A stretch of 52,096 nt of DNA from a virus (lineage: Duplodnaviria > Heunggongvirae > Uroviricota > Caudoviricetes): the IMG/VR virus record IMGVR_UViG_3300033463_000001, positions 275,298 to 327,393 of that record, one strand, 5' to 3'. Of the stretch, positions 4,090 to 16,390 are shown piece by piece; the stretch's first letter is position 1, and every line of letters begins with the position of its first letter. Position numbers and translations under genes: made by a program. The notes below the pieces were generated by a model, which had not been told where the DNA came from, did not search any database, and saw only the letters and a program-made list of their open reading frames with translations.

Positions 4090-6470
4090 GAGAATTAAAG
4101 AAACACTCAACCATTACGGTAGAATGGAAAACAAACGTCTATGACTATTCCGAAAGCAAAGAGCAGGATATCATCGACAAGTTGAGTAAAAAGTATGGCG
4201 TTGATAAAAAACATATCAAGGTCATCACTAACTTCACGGCCACCGGTAACGATAACCAATCGATATCCATTAAGGACGATGTGATTGGTGATATACAGAA
4301 CCCGGAGTTCCAGAAAGGCCTGTTCAAGGAGTTCTTGGAGTTGAACGGTGTTGAAGATTACGATATTAACGAGCTCTATGCCATTGACGATAGGGTTAAC
4401 TCGTATATTGACTTTGATTCATTTGAGCGTGGCAAGATGTACACAATCAAGTGGTTGAAGTGGGATAATTTCTTGAGCTACGGTGAATGTAATCAGTTCG
4501 ATTTTACCAAATACAAGGGTTTGGTGTTGCTTAATGGCGAACCGGCCAATCAGTCTGGTAAAACAACCTTCGCAATGGAACTGATTCGTTTCGTTTTGTT
4601 CGGAAAAGTGACGAAATGTGATAAGCAAGAAGACATTTTCAACCGTTTTCTTCCGGAAGCAACCACTGTAAATGCAGAAATGTGCATATGTATAAATAAC
4701 GAGGATTATATCATCAAGCGTACATTGACACGTCCTGCATTGGCTAAGAGAACGGCTAAAAGCGCTACGAAATCGTACATTGAATACTATAAGGTTAGTG
4801 GCGAAAGTCGCATAGAGTTGAGTGAGTTCAAAAAAGACGAATCTCTCAACGGAGAAAGCGTTGGACAAACCAACAAGGTTATCAAAGAGGCTATTGGAAA
4901 CGAGGATGACTTCGATTTAACCATGTGTGCATCGTCAAAAAGTCTGGATGACCTTATTGACAAAAAGAGCACGGAGCGTGGTCGCATCTTATCACGTTGG
5001 ATTGGTCTTGGTTCGCTCGAAAAGAAAGATGAAGTTGCGCGTGACCTGTTTAACAAGAGCGTGCGCGACACCCTTATTGTCGGTAAATACAACGAAGAAG
5101 CGTTGACCGATGAAATCAATACCAAAACGGCAGAAAACGCAACATTTGTTGAGAATATTGCCCGTTGCGATAAAAACATCAACGACGCTCAGAAGAAGAT
5201 TGATGAGGAAAATCAGAAAATCAAGGCACTTGCCACTTTAAAAAGCACTGTAGACCCGACTGTTATTAAAATGGATATCACAACCGTTAAGAACGCGTTG
5301 GAAACCATTACAGAGTCTGGTAAGTGTAAGAAAGTTGAACTCGAAACGACGAATAAAGAAATCGCCGAGATAGGTGACGCAGAATTCGATAGTACTGCAT
5401 ACAATAAGTTGCACCAAACCAGCACACAGCTTCAGTCTGAGATTGCCGGTAAAAACGTGCAGATAAAGACCAACGAAAAGACAATTAACGACCTTGCAAC
5501 AAGCGAATATTGTCCGGTTTGTAAGCGTAAATACGAGAACGTAGACAATTCTGCAAGAATCAACGAAATCAAGGCCGAGAATGAAAAGTTGGCTGCTGAG
5601 TGCGCTGCGTTGACAGAACAGTTGGGTACTACAAAGAAAGCCATTGAAGACATGACTACTCTTGCCGAGAAGAGCAAGAAACGTGGTGTTCTTGTGGCAA
5701 AGGCGGCGAGCCTTGAGGTAACTCTTGCCAATTTGCGTACAGAATTGCTTGAAAAACGTGGTCTTATCAAGGAGTACGAGGCTAACAAAGAGGCGATTCG
5801 TAAAAACGGTGAACTTGATAGTCAAATTGCTATCTGTGAAGGTAATCTCCAGGTATACAATCAGGAGATTCAAACAGCAACGAATGGTAAAATGTACTAT
5901 CAACAAAGCATGGCTGCTAACGAGGCTACTATCAAGGCAAATAAAGACTTGATAGAACGTATCCATAGGGATGAGCGTATATTGCGCAATTGGAAGCTGT
6001 ATCTTGAGATTATCGGTAAAAACGGTATTAGCAAGATGGTGCTCCGCAAGGCGCTTCCTATCATCAACGCAAACCTTGCACGCATCCTGTCAGACGTGGT
6101 TGATTTCACCGTGGAAGTAACTATCAACGACAAGAATGAAGTGGACTTCCTGCTCGTGCACGACGGTGTTAAGGCAAACTTGCATAGTGGCTCCGGATTG
6201 GAGATGACAGCATCTGCACTTGCATTGCGTACGGTGCTTGCAAACATGTCAAATATGGGGCGTCCGCAATTTATTGTTCTGGACGAGATTCTTGGCCGCG
6301 TTGCTAAGGAGAACTACGAGAATATGCACAGTCTCTACAACAAAATCATGGATAGCTACGAGTTGATTCTGCAGGTTAGTCACCTCCAGGAGATACAAGA
6401 CTGGCACGATGGTGGCGTATTGACTGTTATCAAGAAAAATAACGTAAGTAAAATCATAGAAAATCGTTAA
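4086..6470 (+). CDS. Rad50/SbcC-like (T4 gp46-like) ABC ATPase recombination subunit
   Basis: Walker A ..QSGKTT, long coiled coil with CPVC zinc hook, signature SGSGLE, Walker B IVLDE. Confidence 0.92.
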   Translation: MRELKKHSTITVEWKTNVYDYSESKEQDIIDKLSKKYGVDKKHIKVITNFTATGNDNQSISIKDDVIGDIQNPEFQKGLFKEFLELNGVEDYDINELYAIDDRVNSYIDFDSFERGKMYTIKWLKWDNFLSYGECNQFDFTKYKGLVLLNGEPANQSGKTTFAMELIRFVLFGKVTKCDKQEDIFNRFLPEATTVNAEMCICINNEDYIIKRTLTRPALAKRTAKSATKSYIEYYKVSGESRIELSEFKKDESLNGESVGQTNKVIKEAIGNEDDFDLTMCASSKSLDDLIDKKSTERGRILSRWIGLGSLEKKDEVARDLFNKSVRDTLIVGKYNEEALTDEINTKTAENATFVENIARCDKNINDAQKKIDEENQKIKALATLKSTVDPTVIKMDITTVKNALETITESGKCKKVELETTNKEIAEIGDAEFDSTAYNKLHQTSTQLQSEIAGKNVQIKTNEKTINDLATSEYCPVCKRKYENVDNSARINEIKAENEKLAAECAALTEQLGTTKKAIEDMTTLAEKSKKRGVLVAKAASLEVTLANLRTELLEKRGLIKEYEANKEAIRKNGELDSQIAICEGNLQVYNQEIQTATNGKMYYQQSMAANEATIKANKDLIERIHRDERILRNWKLYLEIIGKNGISKMVLRKALPIINANLARILSDVVDFTVEVTINDKNEVDFLLVHDGVKANLHSGSGLEMTASALALRTVLANMSNMGRPQFIVLDEILGRVAKENYENMHSLYNKIMDSYELILQVSHLQEIQDWHDGGVLTVIKKNNVSKIIENR

Positions 6471-6964: not shown

Positions 6965-7666
6965 GTGGAACAAACAAAAAAACTGGTAGACAATAGCGCA
7001 AATGCGTATATGCGAGACATCTCAAAAATTGAGGTGATATCATCTGAGGAACAACTTGAACTTGTTAAACTGGCTCAAAAAGGAGACCTAGATGCACGTA
7101 ACAAGCTGATTGAGTGTAATTTAAAGTTCGTTGCCGCCACAGCGAGAGAATATATCAATGACCGTGTTGAGTTGTTTGACCTTATACAGAGTGGTGTTGA
7201 TGGGTTAATGTATGCAATCAAGAAATTTGATTTCAGTCACTCAACCTGTTTTCTTACCTATGCTGTGTACTGGATTGAGCAATACATACAAAAGTCTGTC
7301 CGTTCATTCGGTCGAGAAATTAGTGTTACGCTTCTCAATGCCCATAAAAACGACTACGAAGACGATGTCCAGGATGTTATTAGCACATACACAAGCGATG
7401 AACCTGGCATGATTCAACAAGAGCAGAGCTATCGCACTCACGAACACAAAGAGATGGTGAAAAAGATGATGGCAATACTCAATCCGAGGGAAAAAGAGAT
7501 ATTAACAATGTACTATGGCCTTGATAATACAAAGAAACTTTCAATGAATGAGATATCCGAGTATATGGGGCTTAGTAGCGAGCGCACACGTAAAATTAAA
7601 GAAGGCGCAATCCACAAGATAAGAGGTGCATCTGTTGGAAAATACACTCTTGATGATATTTATTGA
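6965..7666 (+). CDS. sigma-70 family RNA polymerase sigma factor (sigma #1)
   Basis: Region 1.2 AYMRDI, region 2 ARNKLIECNLKFV...DLIQSG..GLMYAIKKFD...FLTYAVYWI, region 4 LNPREKEIL...SERTRKIKEGAIHKIR. Confidence 0.9.
   Translation: MEQTKKLVDNSANAYMRDISKIEVISSEEQLELVKLAQKGDLDARNKLIECNLKFVAATAREYINDRVELFDLIQSGVDGLMYAIKKFDFSHSTCFLTYAVYWIEQYIQKSVRSFGREISVTLLNAHKNDYEDDVQDVISTYTSDEPGMIQQEQSYRTHEHKEMVKKMMAILNPREKEILTMYYGLDNTKKLSMNEISEYMGLSSERTRKIKEGAIHKIRGASVGKYTLDDIY
7656..7665 (+). promoter_or_regulatory. putative late promoter motif ATATTTATTG
   Basis: Variant of GTATTTATW motif overlapping sigma stop, upstream of ATG 7706. Confidence 0.45.
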
Positions 7667-7705: not shown

Positions 7706-8086
7706 ATGAGTAATAAAACTACAAAGAAAAACACTGCAATCGAAGAGACGGCTGCAGTAGAGCAGGTTGAAATGACAGCTGCTATCAGCGAAGGCATTCC
7801 TGCAGAAGAGACTCTGGAAGAGGAAGTAAACACAATCGAAGAAGGTGCTGAGTTCGTTCCGGACGATAAAGAGGAAGCCAAAGAAGAAGAAGAAGTTAAA
7901 GAAGAGGAAGAGGTTAAAGAAGAGGCTGTTTTCGAAAACGAAGAGCCTGCTACTGAGGAAGCTGAACAAGTTTTTGAAATTGCCGAGCCGGAACCTGCTG
8001 TAGAAGAAGCTAAGGAAGAGAAAAAGGAAGAGGTTTCAGAGATTGGTAAAATGATTTCTAACCTGTATTCCCCGGATGGTTATTAA
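7706..8086 (+). CDS. highly acidic low-complexity protein
   Basis: Glu-rich with EEEEVK tandem repeat. Confidence 0.7.
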   Translation: MSNKTTKKNTAIEETAAVEQVEMTAAISEGIPAEETLEEEVNTIEEGAEFVPDDKEEAKEEEEVKEEEEVKEEAVFENEEPATEEAEQVFEIAEPEPAVEEAKEEKKEEVSEIGKMISNLYSPDGY

Positions 8087-8097
8087 TTGACGGAACA

Positions 8098-8532
8098 ATG
8101 GCTCAACTTGATTCATCTCGCGATGTAACACAGAAAATGTTACAGACCATTCGGGAATCGATTGAGGCTCCTTCAAAAGAAATCGTTATCACCAACGACA
8201 ACAAGTTCGGTGACAACACCCTAACGTCTGAAAAGGAGTATATTTCAAGTAATCTAAACTCGACAGTCCGTTTCAGTGAAAACGCACTTGTTTTCTATCC
8301 GGACAAAGATGACTTGACATTCTCCGGTGAGGTTCCTGAGCTGAACAACTTACGTTTCCAATTCCGCCTGAATGACCCAACCGGCCAAGGCGTGTATATT
8401 TGGGTACAACAACTCCAGCTGACCGACGTAAACGTTAGGAAGGTTCAATTGATTCACAATCTCTTCCTGAACTGGAAAGACCGCTGGGTTAAAAACGCAG
8501 CACTGCTGGATAGCCTCAAAGGTAACCAGTAA
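8098..8532 (+). CDS. hypothetical protein (possibly virion-associated)
   Basis: ORF followed by terminator; in putative late block. Confidence 0.7.
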   Translation: MAQLDSSRDVTQKMLQTIRESIEAPSKEIVITNDNKFGDNTLTSEKEYISSNLNSTVRFSENALVFYPDKDDLTFSGEVPELNNLRFQFRLNDPTGQGVYIWVQQLQLTDVNVRKVQLIHNLFLNWKDRWVKNAALLDSLKGNQ

Positions 8533-8540
8533 TCCAAAGA

Positions 8541-8575
8541 AAGAGTCGCACCAATCGGCGCGGCTTTTTTGTTTT
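8541..8575 (+). terminator. Rho-independent terminator
   Basis: AGTCGCACC-aatc-GGCGCGGCT followed by T-tract. Confidence 0.75.
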
Positions 8576-8610
8576 ATGTGATATAACGTGTAATTTTTTG
8601 TTATTATAAG

Positions 8611-8620
8611 GTATTTATAA
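8611..8620 (+). promoter_or_regulatory. putative late promoter motif GTATTTATAA
   Basis: Intergenic, right after terminator, upstream of ATG 8640. Confidence 0.65.
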
Positions 8621-8639
8621 TAAAGGAAGAATAGTCGAT

Positions 8640-8810
8640 ATGAATCAACATATAGTAAAGGAAGAACTCACGAAAGCTGACGTACAGCGAATGATAGATA
8701 ATTCTATCGAAAGCAAGGATACTGAAAAATACATCAAGAAAGTATGTGACGACGTCCTTGAGAATATGTTTAAGACGCTTTGGCAACGCAAAGGCTTTTG
8801 GAAGAAGTAA
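8640..8810 (+). CDS. small hypothetical protein (56 aa)
   Basis: Hand translation MNQHIVKEELTKADVQRMIDNSIESK...LWQRKGFWKK; below ORF-track cutoff. Confidence 0.7.
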   Translation: MNQHIVKEELTKADVQRMIDNSIESKDTEKYIKKVCDDVLENMFKTLWQRKGFWKK

Positions 8811-8811
8811 T

Positions 8812-9384
8812 ATGGATAGGCTGGTAGTAATCACAGAATCTCAAGCGGCAGCTTTACGGAGGTCTATTGAGGAACAGCAGGCAGAAATCGTATTTGATAC
8901 GTTTCAAGAGGCTGTGAAGGGGTTCTTGAAAGAGCTCCTGGTTAATCCTATTCATCCTGAGGTTCCAGGTTTCTTCAAAGAGCGTGGTTTTAGTAAAGAT
9001 GAGTTACTCAAGAAGTTGGTTGACCTTGATATCGTCAAGGAGAAAAATAAAATCAACGATAAGGATGGAGTTAGCCGGATGAGTCTGCAATACTCAGTTC
9101 CTGCAAGCAACTTCCGTAGCAAGGTAATGAAGCTTTATAAGAATGTTGTTGAGAAAGACCCAATCAATGAGGATGGTGAAGGTGGAGGGGCTGCTGCATG
9201 TGGTGACGCCGGTGCACAAGCTGCTTCTGATGGTGGTGGATTTATAAGTCCGGTTGGTGATTCTAACAGCGGAAACAGTATATTAGGCGATGATGACCGT
9301 GGACAATACTCAGCACCGTTTGGGTGGAGCAGAAAAAAGAAAAAGAATGACACGGATGTCATGCGAAGAACACTAAGAGCTTAA
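8812..9384 (+). CDS. hypothetical protein (putative head-associated)
   Basis: Start reassigned to ATG 8812 (MDRLVVITESQ...), immediately after preceding stop. Confidence 0.75.
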   Translation: MDRLVVITESQAAALRRSIEEQQAEIVFDTFQEAVKGFLKELLVNPIHPEVPGFFKERGFSKDELLKKLVDLDIVKEKNKINDKDGVSRMSLQYSVPASNFRSKVMKLYKNVVEKDPINEDGEGGGAAACGDAGAQAASDGGGFISPVGDSNSGNSILGDDDRGQYSAPFGWSRKKKKNDTDVMRRTLRA

Positions 9385-9385
9385 T

Positions 9386-9553
9386 ATGGAAAAACCTCAA
9401 GCATATAACCCGGAAGACTACCGAAAAGCTGTTATGGATACCAATTCACAAATAGCAGAACGGGTGAAAGAGTCAAACGGCGTGGTTGATGCAGAACTAA
9501 CAAAACTACTACAAAGAAGACTCATGCAGGGTCTTTGGTTACAGACAATATAG
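9386..9553 (+). CDS. small hypothetical protein (55 aa)
   Basis: Hand translation MEKPQAYNPEDYRKAV...WLQTI, fills the gap exactly. Confidence 0.65.
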   Translation: MEKPQAYNPEDYRKAVMDTNSQIAERVKESNGVVDAELTKLLQRRLMQGLWLQTI

Positions 9554-9566
9554 AATCAAAAATACA

Positions 9567-10397
9567 ATGGCAAAGGAAATTACAGTAAGGGATGTGCGCA
9601 AGCAAATCCAGGAAACGGCAAAGAGTGAGTTCAAGCCCGTTCTCGGCACCAATGTTGAGAAGGACGAGAAGAAACAGAACTCGGAAGCCTACTCTGACGC
9701 AGCAAAACGTGTTCAGGAGTATCTGAAAGGCCTAGAGAATGAGGGTTCTACAGGAAACAAAGCCGCAGCTGGCGGTGAGAATCGTGGTATGACATCCTTG
9801 CTCTATGACCAAATTGCAGATAACTTCAAGGAGCGTGTAAAAGCGCAGTTAAAAGGCTATGACAGTACTGAGGCTGAAAAGCTGCACAAAGACGATGAGA
9901 AAGCAGCGAAATTCGGCACCGATGACGACGTTAAAGCAATGAAGGACATTGCTGATGTTGTCAAGAAAGAAAAAGACGAGCTCAAGACGCAGGGTTTGGT
10001 TGGTAGTAAGCAAGACAAGAAAGAGGTTGAGAAACACACTCACACAGCTCTTGGTGAGAACCAACAAGTAATGCGCTTGCGTTTCAAACACACTCAATTC
10101 CTGAGTGAGAATGACATGCGCAAGCATATTCCTGATAACTATAAGGTTGAAGGTAAGAAATTCTACATGACAGATAACGCCGGTAACGACTATCTGGTAG
10201 AATGGTCATATGGTAAGGCAAATGTGCTGTCTGCAAATAACGAGGCTAAAGTAAATGAGCAAGTCGCTAAGATGAAGAAACTCATGAATTACGATGGCCA
10301 CGCAGACTATGCAACAAGTGATATCTACCTTAGGGAAAGTGCTGACAACGGCATGAACGACGTGTTACGCAAAATGCGTACTATATGTTCTAAGTAA
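9567..10397 (+). CDS. hypothetical protein (putative internal head protein)
   Basis: Charged 276-aa ORF with VNEQVAKMKKLMNY-type segment; in putative late operon. Confidence 0.7.
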   Translation: MAKEITVRDVRKQIQETAKSEFKPVLGTNVEKDEKKQNSEAYSDAAKRVQEYLKGLENEGSTGNKAAAGGENRGMTSLLYDQIADNFKERVKAQLKGYDSTEAEKLHKDDEKAAKFGTDDDVKAMKDIADVVKKEKDELKTQGLVGSKQDKKEVEKHTHTALGENQQVMRLRFKHTQFLSENDMRKHIPDNYKVEGKKFYMTDNAGNDYLVEWSYGKANVLSANNEAKVNEQVAKMKKLMNYDGHADYATSDIYLRESADNGMNDVLRKMRTICSK

Positions 10398-10411
10398 CTC
10401 AATCAACCGCC

Positions 10412-10651
10412 ATGACAAAGGAAGAACGCGCGACGTATGAGAAGAAGGCAACGTGGCAAATGTGGATTGCCTCTGTTACACTGCTTGTTGGATTGGGATT
10501 ATTAATTGGTTCTTTCGTAGTACCACCTCCGGGAGAAATCCACCCATCAGTACTTGCAGCATTTGGTGAAGTCTTATCGTTTGTAGGAGCAATCATCGGT
10601 ATTGACTACTCTTATAAGAAGAAAAGGCTTGAGTATGAAGAAGAAAAATAA
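10412..10651 (+). CDS. small two-TM membrane protein, holin-like
   Basis: Two hydrophobic helices around a PPPGEIHPS loop and charged C-tail; late block near spanin-like gene. Confidence 0.5.
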   Translation: MTKEERATYEKKATWQMWIASVTLLVGLGLLIGSFVVPPPGEIHPSVLAAFGEVLSFVGAIIGIDYSYKKKRLEYEEEK

Positions 10652-10665
10652 GAAAAAATTAAGGG

Positions 10666-11454
10666 ATGACAAACGATAACACGCAGGTTGTTCGTATCAC
10701 AACCGAACAACTTAAACAACGAGTAACAGAGGGGGTTATTCGTCTCCTGAAAGAAATAGCAGAAAGCGAAGAGACTCCGGCTGTATACGTTGGCACATAT
10801 GGTAAATATAACAACGGTTCAATCGCTGGTAAATGGGTTGACTTAACTCAATACGATAACTACGAAGACCTCATGCAGGCATTCCATGAAATCCACAAAG
10901 ACGAAAGTGACCCGGAATTGATGTACCAGGATTGGGAATATATCCCTGACATCTTTATCTCAGAGAGCCATATCAGCGATAGGATTTACGATTACATCAA
11001 CGAACGTGACGACCTTAGTTTCGATGCAAAGATGGCCATCGCAGACCATTGTAGTGACGAGGATGAGTACTTTAGGGTACTTGATGATGTAATTCTCTTC
11101 CCTGGCTGTAAGGATATGCAAGACGTTGCAGACCAATACATCGAAATGTGCGGTGGTCTTGAATATGCAGTTCAGAACCTGCAGGACTATTTCGATTATG
11201 AGGCATTCGGACGCGATGTACGTTTCGAGGGTAACTATGACTCAGACGAATACGGTAGCATCTACGAATACTGGGGTCTTCCGGAGGATGCATCTGACGA
11301 AGAACTAGGTGAGGCTATCGTTAACGAAGTAGGATGGGAAGGCGTTGGTGAACGCAACCTTCAAACATACTTCGATTACAATAGGTTCGGACGCGCGCTG
11401 GAATCTGAAGGAACATTCGTTGAGTATTCTGACGGTTTCATCGAAATCATATAA
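10666..11454 (+). CDS. ardA: antirestriction protein ArdA (DNA mimic), extended
   Basis: VYVGTYGKYNNGSIAGKWVDL, DPELMYQDWEYIP, YFDYEAFGRD motifs; very acidic; extra N-leader and duplicated YFDY..FGR unit. Confidence 0.88.
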   Translation: MTNDNTQVVRITTEQLKQRVTEGVIRLLKEIAESEETPAVYVGTYGKYNNGSIAGKWVDLTQYDNYEDLMQAFHEIHKDESDPELMYQDWEYIPDIFISESHISDRIYDYINERDDLSFDAKMAIADHCSDEDEYFRVLDDVILFPGCKDMQDVADQYIEMCGGLEYAVQNLQDYFDYEAFGRDVRFEGNYDSDEYGSIYEYWGLPEDASDEELGEAIVNEVGWEGVGERNLQTYFDYNRFGRALESEGTFVEYSDGFIEII

Positions 11455-11471
11455 GATAACACTATCAAATT

Positions 11472-11503
11472 GGAGCCATCTATGATATAGGTGGCTCTTC
11501 TTG
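11472..11503 (+). terminator. Rho-independent terminator-like hairpin
   Basis: GAGCCATCTAT-gat-ATAGGTGGCTC followed by weak T-rich tail. Confidence 0.6.
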
Positions 11504-11523
11504 TCTAAAAACATAACATATAT

Positions 11524-12270
11524 ATGGAAAAGGTTAAAAACTACGCGATACTTGTTTTATCTATCGCCGTGATTGTATTCATTCTGCTGTTTAATTGGAA
11601 AAATAACCAGTGTTCGCTTGCTCAACATAACCTCGATGCACTCAACGATACACTAACTGTTGTTCGCATGGAGAACAATGAGTTGCTTGCCTATAAGAAG
11701 TCGTTGGTTCTACAAATATCTGACCTTGAGAAGTACACATCAATCAAAGAGTCAGAAGTGAAGCGTCTCCAGAAGGAATTGGGGCAGAAAATTAAGTATA
11801 TCGCAGAGATTGAGAGCCAGATACGCCACGACACAATAAACACACAGCAAGATTCTGTTGTTGCCGTTGACACAACTACATATCAGTACCATTTTTCCGA
11901 AAGGACACCATATTATGCCCTGGCGGGATTTACAAGAGTTAACCATTTAACGCATATGTCACATACTGTAATCACTGAGAATACCATGCCTCTCAATTTA
12001 CGTGTTGGACTTGGTGAAGACTGGACTATATTCGTTAATAGTGATAATCCTAATGTGGTGATTGGTAGCATCACCGGTGCGCATCTTAACCCGAAGGAGT
12101 TTGAAAAAGAAAAATACGGTCATTTATCCATTGGATTCCAGAGCGGATTAGGTGGAACAGTAAACTATGGCCTACAGTTCTCCAACGACGGAATTATACG
12201 CCACGGATGGAATGTTGGTGCCGGATGGTACTTCGGATTAGGTTTTCAGTATATTTTTATTGTGTTTTAG
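11524..12270 (+). CDS. membrane-anchored coiled-coil protein, spanin-like
   Basis: N-terminal TM, coiled coil, Gly/aromatic beta-strand C-terminus ending in Phe. Confidence 0.5.
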   Translation: MEKVKNYAILVLSIAVIVFILLFNWKNNQCSLAQHNLDALNDTLTVVRMENNELLAYKKSLVLQISDLEKYTSIKESEVKRLQKELGQKIKYIAEIESQIRHDTINTQQDSVVAVDTTTYQYHFSERTPYYALAGFTRVNHLTHMSHTVITENTMPLNLRVGLGEDWTIFVNSDNPNVVIGSITGAHLNPKEFEKEKYGHLSIGFQSGLGGTVNYGLQFSNDGIIRHGWNVGAGWYFGLGFQYIFIVF

Positions 12271-12289
12271 TTGTTTATTCTGATAATTG

Positions 12290-12301
12290 GGACTATATTA
12301 G
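12290..12301 (+). promoter_or_regulatory. phage promoter motif GGACTATATTAG
   Basis: Exact motif upstream of ATG 12325. Confidence 0.75.
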
Positions 12302-12324
12302 TGCTAGAATAAACAATTGCGATA

Positions 12325-12522
12325 ATGTTATATACATTTTTACATTTCATTGCAGTATTTCTGCTTGTATTTGGGTGTGTAGTAATTTTGCGCGACCTGT
12401 TCTCGTTTATTTGGTCGTTCGTTAAAGCCACACCAATTCAATTCACGACCGCCAGGAGAATCGTGCTTGCGTTGTCCCTGGCATATGTATTCAGTAGTAT
12501 ATTTGTAGGACTGCCATGTTAG
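12325..12522 (+). CDS. small membrane protein
   Basis: Two hydrophobic segments; follows promoter motif. Confidence 0.65.
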   Translation: MLYTFLHFIAVFLLVFGCVVILRDLFSFIWSFVKATPIQFTTARRIVLALSLAYVFSSIFVGLPC

Positions 12523-13184
12523 ACGATAAAGAATTACTGAAATACGTAAAAGGGTTCTCCGAGGATGACGGGCGATATATAGTCGTAGTGCGCTTTAAGG
12601 AGAAATGGCAACCGTTCACCAACAACGATGGTGTTATCGAGTCCATGCGCGACCCGAACGACACAACACTTTGCTATTATAGTGGCGATGTAGATAAGGT
12701 AGAACTATCTGCCATCTACGAGATGATTTCGCAGGTTGTGAAGATAAACATCGAGGCTGAAGAGAAGATGGATTTGCTTATGCAGAAGATTGAGGAGATG
12801 AAGCGAATCTTTAGCGAGACACCGCTTGAGAAGCTTCGTTGTTTCACATTCACATTTGCAGACCAACCGGTTCCGGTTAACAAGGCCGTAAGTACGGAAA
12901 AACCGAAGATTCCTTCTATTAACGAAGCAAAGAAAATGTTACCGCTTGACGAAACAACCGATGAGGCTGCTAATCCAAGCAAGCAAAGTCCGTTTCGCAA
13001 AGCTGCTGCAAACAGTAAGGTTGGCCGTAAAAAAGCTGGTACACCGAAACCGATGAATGTTAACGCGATGCCGACTATGAGTGTTCAGCACCAGATACCG
13101 GCAGGACAGCAACAACAAGCTCCGCGTGTTCCTGGGCTGCTCTCTAGTGAGGATGTTGACAAATTAGCTGAAATGGGATATTGA
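12516..13184 (+). CDS. hypothetical protein
   Basis: ORF with coiled coil and low-complexity tail. Confidence 0.7.
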   Translation: MLDDKELLKYVKGFSEDDGRYIVVVRFKEKWQPFTNNDGVIESMRDPNDTTLCYYSGDVDKVELSAIYEMISQVVKINIEAEEKMDLLMQKIEEMKRIFSETPLEKLRCFTFTFADQPVPVNKAVSTEKPKIPSINEAKKMLPLDETTDEAANPSKQSPFRKAAANSKVGRKKAGTPKPMNVNAMPTMSVQHQIPAGQQQQAPRVPGLLSSEDVDKLAEMGY

Positions 13185-14925: not shown

Positions 14926-14964
14926 AAAAAACGTCCACTGGATTTGTCCATGTGGATTTTTTTT
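14926..14964. terminator. terminator hairpin with A/T tracts on both sides
   Basis: AAAAAA-cgTCCAC-TGGA-tttg-TCCA-t-GTGGA-TTTTTTT. Confidence 0.65.
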
Positions 14965-15078: not shown

Positions 15079-15116
15079 CATCGATTTTTGAAAACAACTG
15101 TTTAATTGTATTGCAT

Positions 15117-16022
15117 ATGGCAGCATTTTATTTCGACTTTAAAGACAACAACCCCGTAGAAAGAACTGAAGCATTCAATGCTTATAGTAAGGAAATTAAG
15201 AAGTACCCCCGCCTGAGCGATGAAGAGATTGACGCTCTCATTACTCGTATGAACGAGACAGACGATGAAAACCTGAAGCGCGACATCCGGGATAGCATCA
15301 TTATGGCACACCAGCAACTGCTTATCTCCCTTTCTAAGCGCTATGCTAACACTGAAAACGTAGACCAGCTTGATTTAATCAATGAGGGTGTATTTGGTCT
15401 TATCAAGGCTATTGAGAAGTACAAACCAGGCGCTGGTTCGAAGTTTTATTCGTACGCAGCTGACTGGGTTCGTGATGAAATGTCTAAAGCTACATATGCC
15501 GCTCCCATTGTGAAGACTGGCGGTAAGAAGTATTTCACTGTATTCACTAAGTGCTACGACCGACTTGCTGAACAGTATGAGGGATATGTTCCTGACGATT
15601 TACTTCTTGAGGAAATCAACAAAGAGGTGCATGAGAGTGACCGTATTGCGTCTCTTAGTACTGCTACTCTGGCTATGTCTGTCGGATATAGTGAGTTCTG
15701 CGACAAATCGGATAAGTTTTCTGATATGTCATGTACCGGCGTTGACTCGCTGATTACTGGCCGTCCGTATTGGGAAGGTCTCAGCGATACAGAATCAAGT
15801 GTTGATGCAGATGACCAGAAACGTCTGGTTAAACTCGCATTGGGTTCTATCAAGAATAAAAAAGACAAAGAGTTGATTTGCGACCTGTATGGTATCGACC
15901 GCCCGCAGATGGGTTACGAAATGGCCGCATGGAAGTATGGCACATCAGAAGTGACTGTGAAAAAGCGCGAGAAGAAGGCGCTGGAAGCTATGAAGACAAA
16001 GCTTTCGAAAATGGCGTTATAA
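15117..16022 (+). CDS. sigma-70 family RNA polymerase sigma factor (sigma #2)
   Basis: AYSKEIKKYPRLS, RDSIIMAHQQLLISLSKRY, DLINEGVFGLIKAIEKY, FYSYAADWV, region 4 VKKREKKALEAMK. Confidence 0.88.
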   Translation: MAAFYFDFKDNNPVERTEAFNAYSKEIKKYPRLSDEEIDALITRMNETDDENLKRDIRDSIIMAHQQLLISLSKRYANTENVDQLDLINEGVFGLIKAIEKYKPGAGSKFYSYAADWVRDEMSKATYAAPIVKTGGKKYFTVFTKCYDRLAEQYEGYVPDDLLLEEINKEVHESDRIASLSTATLAMSVGYSEFCDKSDKFSDMSCTGVDSLITGRPYWEGLSDTESSVDADDQKRLVKLALGSIKNKKDKELICDLYGIDRPQMGYEMAAWKYGTSEVTVKKREKKALEAMKTKLSKMAL

Positions 16023-16059: not shown

Positions 16060-16390
16060 CTCTTGCCATTGCGGCTAGAAGTTTCCTAGCGACTTTCTTT
16101 GGCATATCGTATTTCACCCAACCTTGTTTTCCGTTGTGAACACCACCATTGATATAGCGGTTTGCAAGTGACTGTGAAATACCAGCCTCGCGAGCGATTG
16201 CAGATACGTTTACAATATGTTTACCGTCATCTGTAGTTACCTTGTTCTTAATACTCATCTGGTCACGCTTGGAGATTGCGTGTGAGGAATCTTCTGTGCT
16301 TTTCTTTTTCGGAGCTTTCTTCTTTTTCTCCGTGATGTAGCGCTCAGTCTCTTCCCGGATGATTTGTTCAATACGTACGTCTGATATCAT
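16049..16390 (-). CDS. basic HTH-containing protein
   Basis: NVSAIAREAGISQSLANRYING helix-turn-helix; Lys-rich linker. Confidence 0.7.
   Translation of the reverse strand: MISDVRIEQIIREETERYITEKKKKAPKKKSTEDSSHAISKRDQMSIKNKVTTDDGKHIVNVSAIAREAGISQSLANRYINGGVHNGKQGWVKYDMPKKVARKLLAAMAREKV

Follow-up and report, generated by a model that had tools for sequence, protein, structure and literature searches.

A long-form ArdA with an N-terminal tag shared by unrelated proteins: a candidate internal head protein of an uncultured T4-like phage

Why would a phage make the anti-restriction protein ArdA late in infection? ArdA blocks Type I restriction–modification (R-M) enzymes by DNA mimicry, as has been described together with the roles of its motifs (PMC2731889). 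Phage WC1 has it among its early genes (PMC10986025), and the ardA gene of phiCD211 lies beside repressor-type genes in an early-type region. Because the canonical phage ArdA is early, late synthesis of such a protein needs a reason. The question is raised by a gene at positions 10666-11454 (+ strand) of a 52,096-nucleotide (nt) stretch of viral DNA, hereafter the window, which is the terminal 52 kb (positions 275,298 to 327,393) of a single 327,393-bp virus contig, from a gut phage with a head of the T4 type (IMG/VR record IMGVR_UViG_3300033463_000001; CheckV completeness 93%). The gene encodes a long-form ArdA of 262 amino acids (aa), with a net charge of -44, and closes a transcription unit headed by a promoter-like motif of the class that precedes virion genes. 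We give a probability of about one half to the reading that this is an internal-protein-type ArdA, made late, loaded into the head through an N-terminal tag, trimmed after residue E30 and ejected to block Type I R-M.

The start of the ardA open reading frame (ORF) is forced, with an in-frame stop at 10660-10662 and no other ATG, GTG or TTG ahead of the conserved core. The product matches the Pfam family ArdA (PF07275) over residues 40-197, which cover profile positions 1-152 of 155 (E-value 1.1e-31; 111 bits for a cut-off of 27), as well as PHROG 2059, 'anti-restriction protein'. By sequence, residues 5-159 of the Tn916 ArdA, Orf18 (2w82, 165 aa), align to residues 39-197 (E 7e-16), that is, to the canonical core of the protein (10780-11256, + strand). 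An AlphaFold2 (AF2) model of the 262 residues has a mean predicted local distance difference test (pLDDT) score of 93.8. Aligned to 2w82_B with VIA-align, it gives a Z of 11.1 and a root-mean-square deviation of 2.7 Å, with 157 of 162 residues aligned over a model span of 37-262; the second-best fold entry has a Z of 2.7. After the leader the protein holds 55 D+E and 13 K+R residues (net charge -42), a measure of composition only and not of spatial pattern, and it shows the signature motifs of domain 3, LQxYFDYxxFGR twice and a C-terminal GFIEII (VF-type). By analogy with characterized ArdA proteins, its presumed target would be Type I R-M enzymes, blocked by DNA mimicry. Cultured phages gave no blastn match to nucleotides 9000-13000 of the window, and a tblastn search against them returned only 12 distant ArdA-bearing records.

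Beyond the core aligned to Tn916 the protein has two extensions, 38 aa at the N-terminus and 65 aa at the C-terminus. The two LQxYFDYxxFGR motifs lie at residues 172-183 and 231-242 (nt 11179 and 11356), each within a domain-3 unit that joins a helix to the anti-restriction motif. Unit 1 spans residues 154-193 (11125-11244, + strand) and carries LQDYFDYEAFGRD; unit 2 spans residues 214-253 (11305-11424, + strand), carries LQTYFDYNRFGRA and draws also on the AF2 model and the fold alignment. Self-BLAST aligns the two with 12/22 identities (E 2e-7), and a profile–profile comparison with hhalign, based on nine long-form homologues, matches 154-193 to 214-253 with a probability of 97% (E 5e-11). 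The terminal β-hairpin with the VF-type motif (GFIEII) is found in a single copy, after unit 2. A preliminary description of the locus, drawn up from the letters alone, had proposed an ArdA DNA mimic of 262 aa with two LQ.YFDY..FGR units and a leader of about 35 aa before the canonical start. The Pfam and fold matches bear out the first of these and the two internal comparisons the second, and the leader is real, the N-terminal extension measuring 38 aa.

In the crystal structure of the Tn916 ArdA, the anti-restriction motif is the dimer interface (PMC2731889). Judged by sequence, the duplicated segment is the piece of domain 3 that forms this interface. Since the 157 aligned residues lie inside a 226-residue span, about 69 residues of the model behave as an insertion within domain 3. 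The duplicated unit may serve to make a longer dimer, or it may fold back to form an internal pseudo-dimer. Long-form ArdAs are a family and not an isolated case, with homologues of 249-274 aa that are 37-47% identical over 91-97% of the query. A second two-unit clade comprises proteins of 323-394 aa (P0022, P0031, P0034, P0063 and P0086, the last at L033:8001-9050). Among the 120 best clusters of ArdA homologues the median length is 172 aa; 14 clusters have two units, and 13 of these 14 are also extended at the N-terminus by more than 25 aa. As the two-unit clusters fall in two clades, this co-occurrence of duplication and extension may be largely inherited. Members of the second clade have 90-160 extra N-terminal residues, with a short KF(R/K)KIVKES motif immediately preceding the ArdA core; P0034 has this motif at its start as well, and one member lies on a 430-kb contig, adjoining NrdD.

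The 38 residues ahead of the canonical P-x-VYVGTY start consist of the leader itself, residues 1-30 (10666-10755, + strand), which ends in L-K-E, and an acidic linker, IAESEETP, residues 31-38 (10756-10779, + strand), whose length and sequence vary among homologues. A helix is predicted at residues 13-33 in the AF2 model. We built a profile of the leader from nine long ArdAs of foreign origin, with the window's own protein excluded, and searched the 473 ORFs of the genome with it. Our results show that the leader is common to other proteins of the phage: at E<0.05 the profile found ArdA and five others, every match starting at residues 1-14. As controls, 20 shuffled proteomes gave 0-1 matches (mean 0.1), and no matches were found when the first 45 residues had been cut from every protein. 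A seventh tagged protein was found (whole-protein E 0.034) in the first search, with a profile that included the window's own leader; it also joined on iteration with the genome's own matches, and the set then converged. Weaker matches to the leader profile are enriched at N-termini too (30/94, for 9.4% expected; P 1e-9).

The seven tagged proteins range from 121 to 262 aa, and BLAST gives no match between their bodies below E 0.1; beside ArdA, one body carries DUF6926 and the other bodies match nothing. The consensus of the tag, of about 30 residues, is M..(R/K)(I/L)TE..L..IV.ESV.R.LKE. All seven leaders (7/7) have [LIV]-x-E at the same profile position, which in ArdA is L28-K29-E30, eight residues before the canonical start. 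The best explanation of these data is an amphipathic helical tag with which several late proteins of this genome, otherwise unrelated, begin.

Three of the other tagged proteins, one of them the carrier of DUF6926, are small and strongly acidic after the tag, namely L001, L004 and L003 (genome positions 167278-167649, 5975-6376 and 120025-120780), with net charges of -15, -11 and -20; each may represent an additional DNA mimic or anti-defence cargo. The products of the genes at 8640, 8812, 9567 and 16390 (- strand) look alike to the leader by eye and were dropped as candidates, none being significant with the leader profile. Those at 8812 and 9567 were not listed at all, the one at 8640 (g283937) had an E of 4.8, and the one at 16390 (g291346) had an E of 13 with its match at residues 50-62, not at the N-terminus.

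The tag is widespread in public data. A profile of 15 leaders, run against 1.84 billion cluster representatives, matched 1,776 of them at E<=0.001; the tag reads ..(R/K)LTES.L..IV.ESV...LKE in these public proteins. Among the 150 best public proteins (P0122-P0271), 133 have a tag copy within their first 15 residues, and 292 of the 294 tag copies that these proteins hold end in [LIVM]-x-E. No Pfam model covers the tag. LPD11, which is known from the polyvalent proteins, is present in two tag-bearing proteins; polyvalent proteins have been proposed to travel with incoming DNA (PMC5512222). The genomic contexts of three top tag-bearing proteins were contigs of 1-4 kb, too short for head genes.

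What a tag ending in this motif could be for is suggested by phage T4. Its protease gp21 cuts after L/I-x-E. Residues 1-10 of IPIII make up the T4 capsid targeting sequence (CTS), by which internal proteins enter the prohead core and which is subsequently cleaved off in this way; Alt is trimmed N- and C-terminally (PMC9026906). Ip1-3 of T4 bear an N-terminal packaging signal and, once injected, inhibit restriction enzymes (PMC12373910). The genome studied here encodes, on its + strand, a gp21-type prohead protease (Peptidase_S77, PF03420, 83.5 bits for a cut-off of 27; genome ORF 112777-113478, match 112834-113397), an acidic scaffold-like protein (113592-114911) and a gp23-type major capsid protein (PF07068 Gp23, 210 bits; ORF 114950-116737). 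A candidate cleavage site in the capsid protein lies between LIKE and ATNS, at about residue 59, and the homologue in a related contig, L031, has MLSE followed by ASDA at the same place; this fits a T4-like cleavage, but is no proof of it.

The promoter-like motifs of the genome bear on the timing of ardA. Of 45 copies of TATTTATWG, 41 are intergenic, for a genome that is about 10% non-coding, and they mostly stand 3-30 nt before a start codon (consensus gTATTTATtGnTAG). This TATTTATW class precedes the sheath gene, a tape-measure-like gene, and the protease and scaffold/capsid units. With a position weight matrix (PWM) trained on the 41 intergenic TATTTATWG sites, the best intergenic site outside the training set is the TATTTATA site at 8612 (score 15.3, rank 43). 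This late-type promoter-like motif (8605-8630, + strand) has its core TATTTATA at 8612-8619, within GGTATTTATAATAAAGG at 8610-8626, and stands 20 nt from the ATG at 8640 and about 2 kb upstream of ardA. The late-type motif that the preliminary description placed upstream of ardA corresponds to GGTATTTATAATAAAGG, of the class that precedes virion genes. Furthermore, a TATTTATW copy immediately precedes four of the seven tagged genes, compared with 48 of 473 genes overall (P=0.0026), and the remaining three are, by gene order, inside motif-led units.

The unit that this motif heads is bounded by two terminators, between which ardA is the last of six tightly packed genes. Upstream, a terminator-like hairpin with a T-run (8547-8575, + strand) follows the preceding gene (8098-8532); the hairpin was detected on the minus strand, and on the + strand GCTTTTTTGTTTT comes after it. 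Downstream, an intrinsic-terminator-like hairpin (11472-11498, + strand; 12 bp stem, 3-nt loop) begins 18 nt after the ardA stop and is the best terminator-like site in 10 kb, with a minimum free energy of -16.9 kcal/mol (z -4.7; 0/200 shuffles equal). No motif of the host type (TTTG..TAnnTTTG) and no GGACTATATTAG motif is found between 8533 and 11454. The latter class has 15 matches at <=2 mismatches for 3.2 expected, and its exact copies, at 2683, 12290, 16459, 32071, 35201, 36515, 39170 and 48907 of the window (+ strand), precede primase, ribonucleotide reductase and other replication-type units; the copy at 12290-12301 starts the unit after that of ardA. Bacteroidota-type TTTG-N-TAnnTTTG motifs are found at 14943, 15047 and 27226 (+ strand), before a sigma-factor gene and a nucleotidyltransferase operon. 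We had considered that the window was a replication and early-middle region, and ardA hence not late, but this was dropped in view of the genome-wide motif analysis and of the gene contexts in relatives; the sequence suggests instead that the ardA unit is transcribed late.

Two phage sigma-factor genes are found in the window (6965-7666 and 15111-16022), and together with the three promoter-like motif classes they look like a transcription cascade. A protein of 126 aa (7706-8086) with a net charge of -33 and EEEVKEE repeats follows a copy of TATTTATTG (about 7656) located inside the end of the first sigma-factor gene; it is a candidate head-core or DNA-mimic protein.

Gene order in relatives links ardA to the head genes. 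In two relatives with a protease-linked long ArdA, that ArdA is 44-47% identical to the protein studied here, and all the genes concerned are on one strand. In the first (P0002, on L031, a 262-kb contig; ArdA 47% identical), the order is a 390-aa protein, ArdA (252 aa), a 249-aa protein, DUF723, Peptidase_S77, a 270-aa protein, a scaffold-like protein of 495 aa and Gp23. In the second (P0003, on L035), a 386-aa protein, ArdA (254 aa), a 111-aa protein, a Peptidase_S77 with an inserted LAGLIDADG domain and a scaffold-like protein precede the contig end. The L031 unit led by the 390-aa gene starts with a terminator and then CTATTTATTA, 19 nt before the ATG (the TATTTATT core arrangement), and the L031 scaffold gene is preceded by ATATTTATTGTTG. 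In our genome the homologue of the 390-aa partner is at 101904-102752, within the + strand run (97.7-120.8 kb) where the head genes are found too. From the linkage in relatives and the position of this homologue, it follows that ardA has moved away from the head genes here while keeping the same kind of unit. The protease gene of L035 (4395-6221) encodes 608 aa, compared with about 235 aa, and its protease match is in two pieces with the LAGLIDADG domain between them, which points to an intein or to the insertion of a homing endonuclease, in either case within an essential head gene.

The identity and fold of ArdA, the duplication, the shared tag, the presence of a protease and a gp23-type capsid, the promoter-motif class and the linkage to head genes in relatives are thus directly supported. 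From these we infer the late timing, docking, cleavage, packaging, ejection and target that the internal-protein reading involves. ArdA would be made late, together with the head genes, like the internal proteins of T4. Its tag would dock it to the scaffolding core of the prohead, where the gp21-type protease would cut after L28-K29-E30, leaving a mature ArdA whose N-terminus is about eight residues ahead of the canonical one. The acidic, rod-shaped protein would then be ejected with the genome and fill the DNA-binding groove of the host Type I R-M enzyme before phage genes are expressed. The preliminary description had likewise suggested a packaged and ejected ArdA. That proposal gains real, though indirect, support from the shared leader, the virion-gene motif class, the T4-type protease and capsid and the linkage in relatives; the lysis operon in which it had been set is not supported, as seen below.

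Several observations weigh against this interpretation. Two or three tag copies are present in 135 of the 150 best public proteins, with a median spacing of 121 aa, and in 25 of the 150 a copy is found at the C-terminal end. Repeated and C-terminal copies are not predicted by a simple N-terminal signal, and it is mainly because of them that our confidence is kept near one half. They could reflect polyproteins with a cut at every tag, docking helices at one or the other end of a protein (compare the two-sided trimming of T4 Alt), or a general interaction module. Indeed, the tag gives sub-threshold matches to RelB_like_antitoxin (PF25734), and from its sequence it could be a general β-strand/helix interaction module. 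Its length of about 30 residues and its sequence both differ from those of the 10-residue T4 CTS, and [LIV]-x-E is a motif of very low information. The high-confidence helix of the leader in the AF2 model says nothing about whether the leader is removed. Here, about 170 kb separate ardA from the head module, and its surroundings are genes of replication and nucleotide metabolism; the motif copy before its unit is a weak variant, lacking the consensus G and the TAG after the core and ranking 43. Finally, the phage is known from metagenomes only, and it is from sequence that we infer the time of expression, the cleavage and the presence in the virion.

Much of this would be accommodated by a cytoplasmic ArdA whose tag is an oligomerization or partner-binding module of many phage proteins (for example, a β-strand and helix pairing like half of a ribbon-helix-helix), unrelated to the capsid, and which is not packaged. 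Such an ArdA, made late, would shield the large pool of unmodified DNA that replication has just produced, or would keep the host's methylase and restriction complex silent for the whole infection. The internal and C-terminal tags, often in 2-3 copies per protein, the sub-threshold RelB_like_antitoxin matches, the confidently modelled leader helix and the location of ardA among replication and nucleotide-metabolism genes are all in its favour, and we regard it as a serious, if rather unlikely, alternative. It leaves unexplained, however, why 292 of 294 tag copies end in [LIV]-x-E, why tagged genes are enriched behind the virion-gene motif and why ardA is near the prohead protease gene in two relatives. 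Moreover, Type I restriction acts on the genome as it enters, and an inhibitor synthesized only late cannot be there in time to protect it.

ArdA could also be the product of an ordinary early or middle gene, expressed from an unrecognised early promoter or by read-through, with the TATTTATA site at 8612 being a chance or non-functional match and the leader a lineage-specific extension that plays no part in packaging. The early ArdA of phage WC1, the early-type region of phiCD211 and the early or middle class of the flanking units in the window point this way, as do the departure of the 8612 site from the consensus after the core and its rank of 43. On the other hand, no TTTG..TAnnTTTG or GGACTATATTAG motif is found between the two terminators, and the 8612 site is the best-scoring intergenic one outside the PWM training set, at the usual 20 nt from the ATG. 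The arrangement in L031 is also identical (terminator, TATTTATT, 19 nt, ATG), and we consider this explanation improbable. Less probable still is that the leader is the recognition site of some other modifying or processing enzyme, in the way that leader peptides are served by one maturase, with ArdA being one of many substrates. The tag does head many unrelated proteins, but no candidate enzyme is linked to tagged genes in the contexts examined; a Fer4_12 gene near P0031, two genes before NrdD with ArdA between them, is probably the NrdD activase.

The other genes of the unit are all on the + strand. The first (8640-8810) encodes 56 aa of no known family. It is followed by a gene of 190 aa counted from its first ATG (8812-9384), also of no known family, whose N-terminus (VVITESQ..) resembles the leader only loosely, by one of 55 aa with no assigned function (9386-9553), and by one of 276 aa (9567-10397) with no Pfam or PHROG match and nothing usable in Atlas. 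The gene directly upstream of ardA (10412-10651) encodes 79 aa with two hydrophobic helices in a hydropathy scan, holin-like by topology only and of no family. Downstream, outside the unit, a gene of 248 aa (11524-12270, + strand) encodes a DUF6549 protein with an N-terminal membrane helix, spanin-like by topology. The middle of this protein is coiled-coil-like, and its C-terminus, GLGFQYIFIVF, resembles the signal of outer-membrane β-barrels (terminal Phe); it could span both membranes. A literature search on DUF6549 found no papers.

The preliminary description had seen in these neighbours a late/lysis operon with holin-like and spanin-like flanks. The topologies do have that resemblance, but neither protein matches a holin or spanin family. 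No muralytic domain was found with Pfam and PHROG in the eight neighbouring proteins, and the whole genome gave no match to Amidase_2 (PF01510) or Phage_lysozyme (PF00959), other lysin families not having been searched. The 248-aa gene sits behind the strong terminator, and the membrane-protein genes after it follow the GGACTATATTAG copy at 12290. The flanking membrane proteins are not conserved neighbours either: the 79-aa, 276-aa and 248-aa proteins show no homology to the genes at the same positions in L031, where a 79-aa protein is also encoded, and the 248-aa protein is only 17% identical to its positional counterpart. The lysis part of the description is thus not supported.

More tentatively, and with somewhat less confidence than we give to the head loading of ArdA itself, the tag could be a portable capsid-loading and processing signal of many uncultured gut T4-like jumbo phages, the purpose of which is revealed by the known function of ArdA. 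If so, this would be the first DNA-mimic inhibitor of Type I R-M delivered pre-made from a phage head. The duplicated dimer-interface unit may suit that route, for example by giving a longer or internally paired rod, of DNA diameter, that leaves through the tail channel, and it is in any case a natural experiment on the length required of an ArdA mimic. What ArdA adds is a tag cargo of known function. To our knowledge, injected anti-defence proteins are documented in only a few model phages (T4 Ip1-3, P1 Dar), and packaging signals have been found phage by phage. If the tag does load the head, it would point out a great many candidate injected effectors of gut jumbo phages, would mean that a DNA mimic can reach the host in protein form and would provide a loading tag for the engineering of T4-like heads. 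The multi-tag proteins may be polyproteins of small injected effectors, and on this reading of the tag they would be cut into separate ones.

This ArdA can be compared with several known systems. With Orf18 of Tn916 (2w82) and the plasmid ArdAs it shares the family, the three-domain fold, the strong acidity and the anti-restriction and VF-type motifs. Those proteins have about 165-170 aa, whereas the phage protein has 262, with a 38-aa N-terminal tag and a tandem copy of the domain-3 helix and dimer-interface motif; its gene, moreover, belongs to a lytic-type jumbo phage and follows a virion-class promoter motif, and is not in the leading region of a conjugative element. T7 Ocr (gene 0.3) also mimics DNA to block Type I R-M, but its fold is unrelated, its gene is expressed before any other once the DNA enters, and the protein is not packaged. 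A shared idea is found in P1 DarA/DarB and the polyvalent proteins (Iyer et al. 2017), in which anti-restriction activities, ArdA domains included, travel pre-made with the DNA (PMC5512222). The polyvalent proteins are very large, multidomain, mostly from elements of Firmicutes, and have ArdA joined to ArdC-N; here a small single-function ArdA has a short tag and a T4-type head. The T4 proteins IPI*, Ip2, Ip3 and Alt offer a further likeness, with unrelated bodies behind one N-terminal peptide ending in L/I-x-E, a gp21-type protease, a gp23-type capsid and, for the internal proteins, anti-restriction cargo. The present tag differs in recurring inside proteins and at C-termini, and its role in packaging and its cleavage are predicted ones; the T4 cargo is an inhibitor of GmrSD (Type IV), while the ArdA cargo is a DNA mimic directed at Type I R-M.

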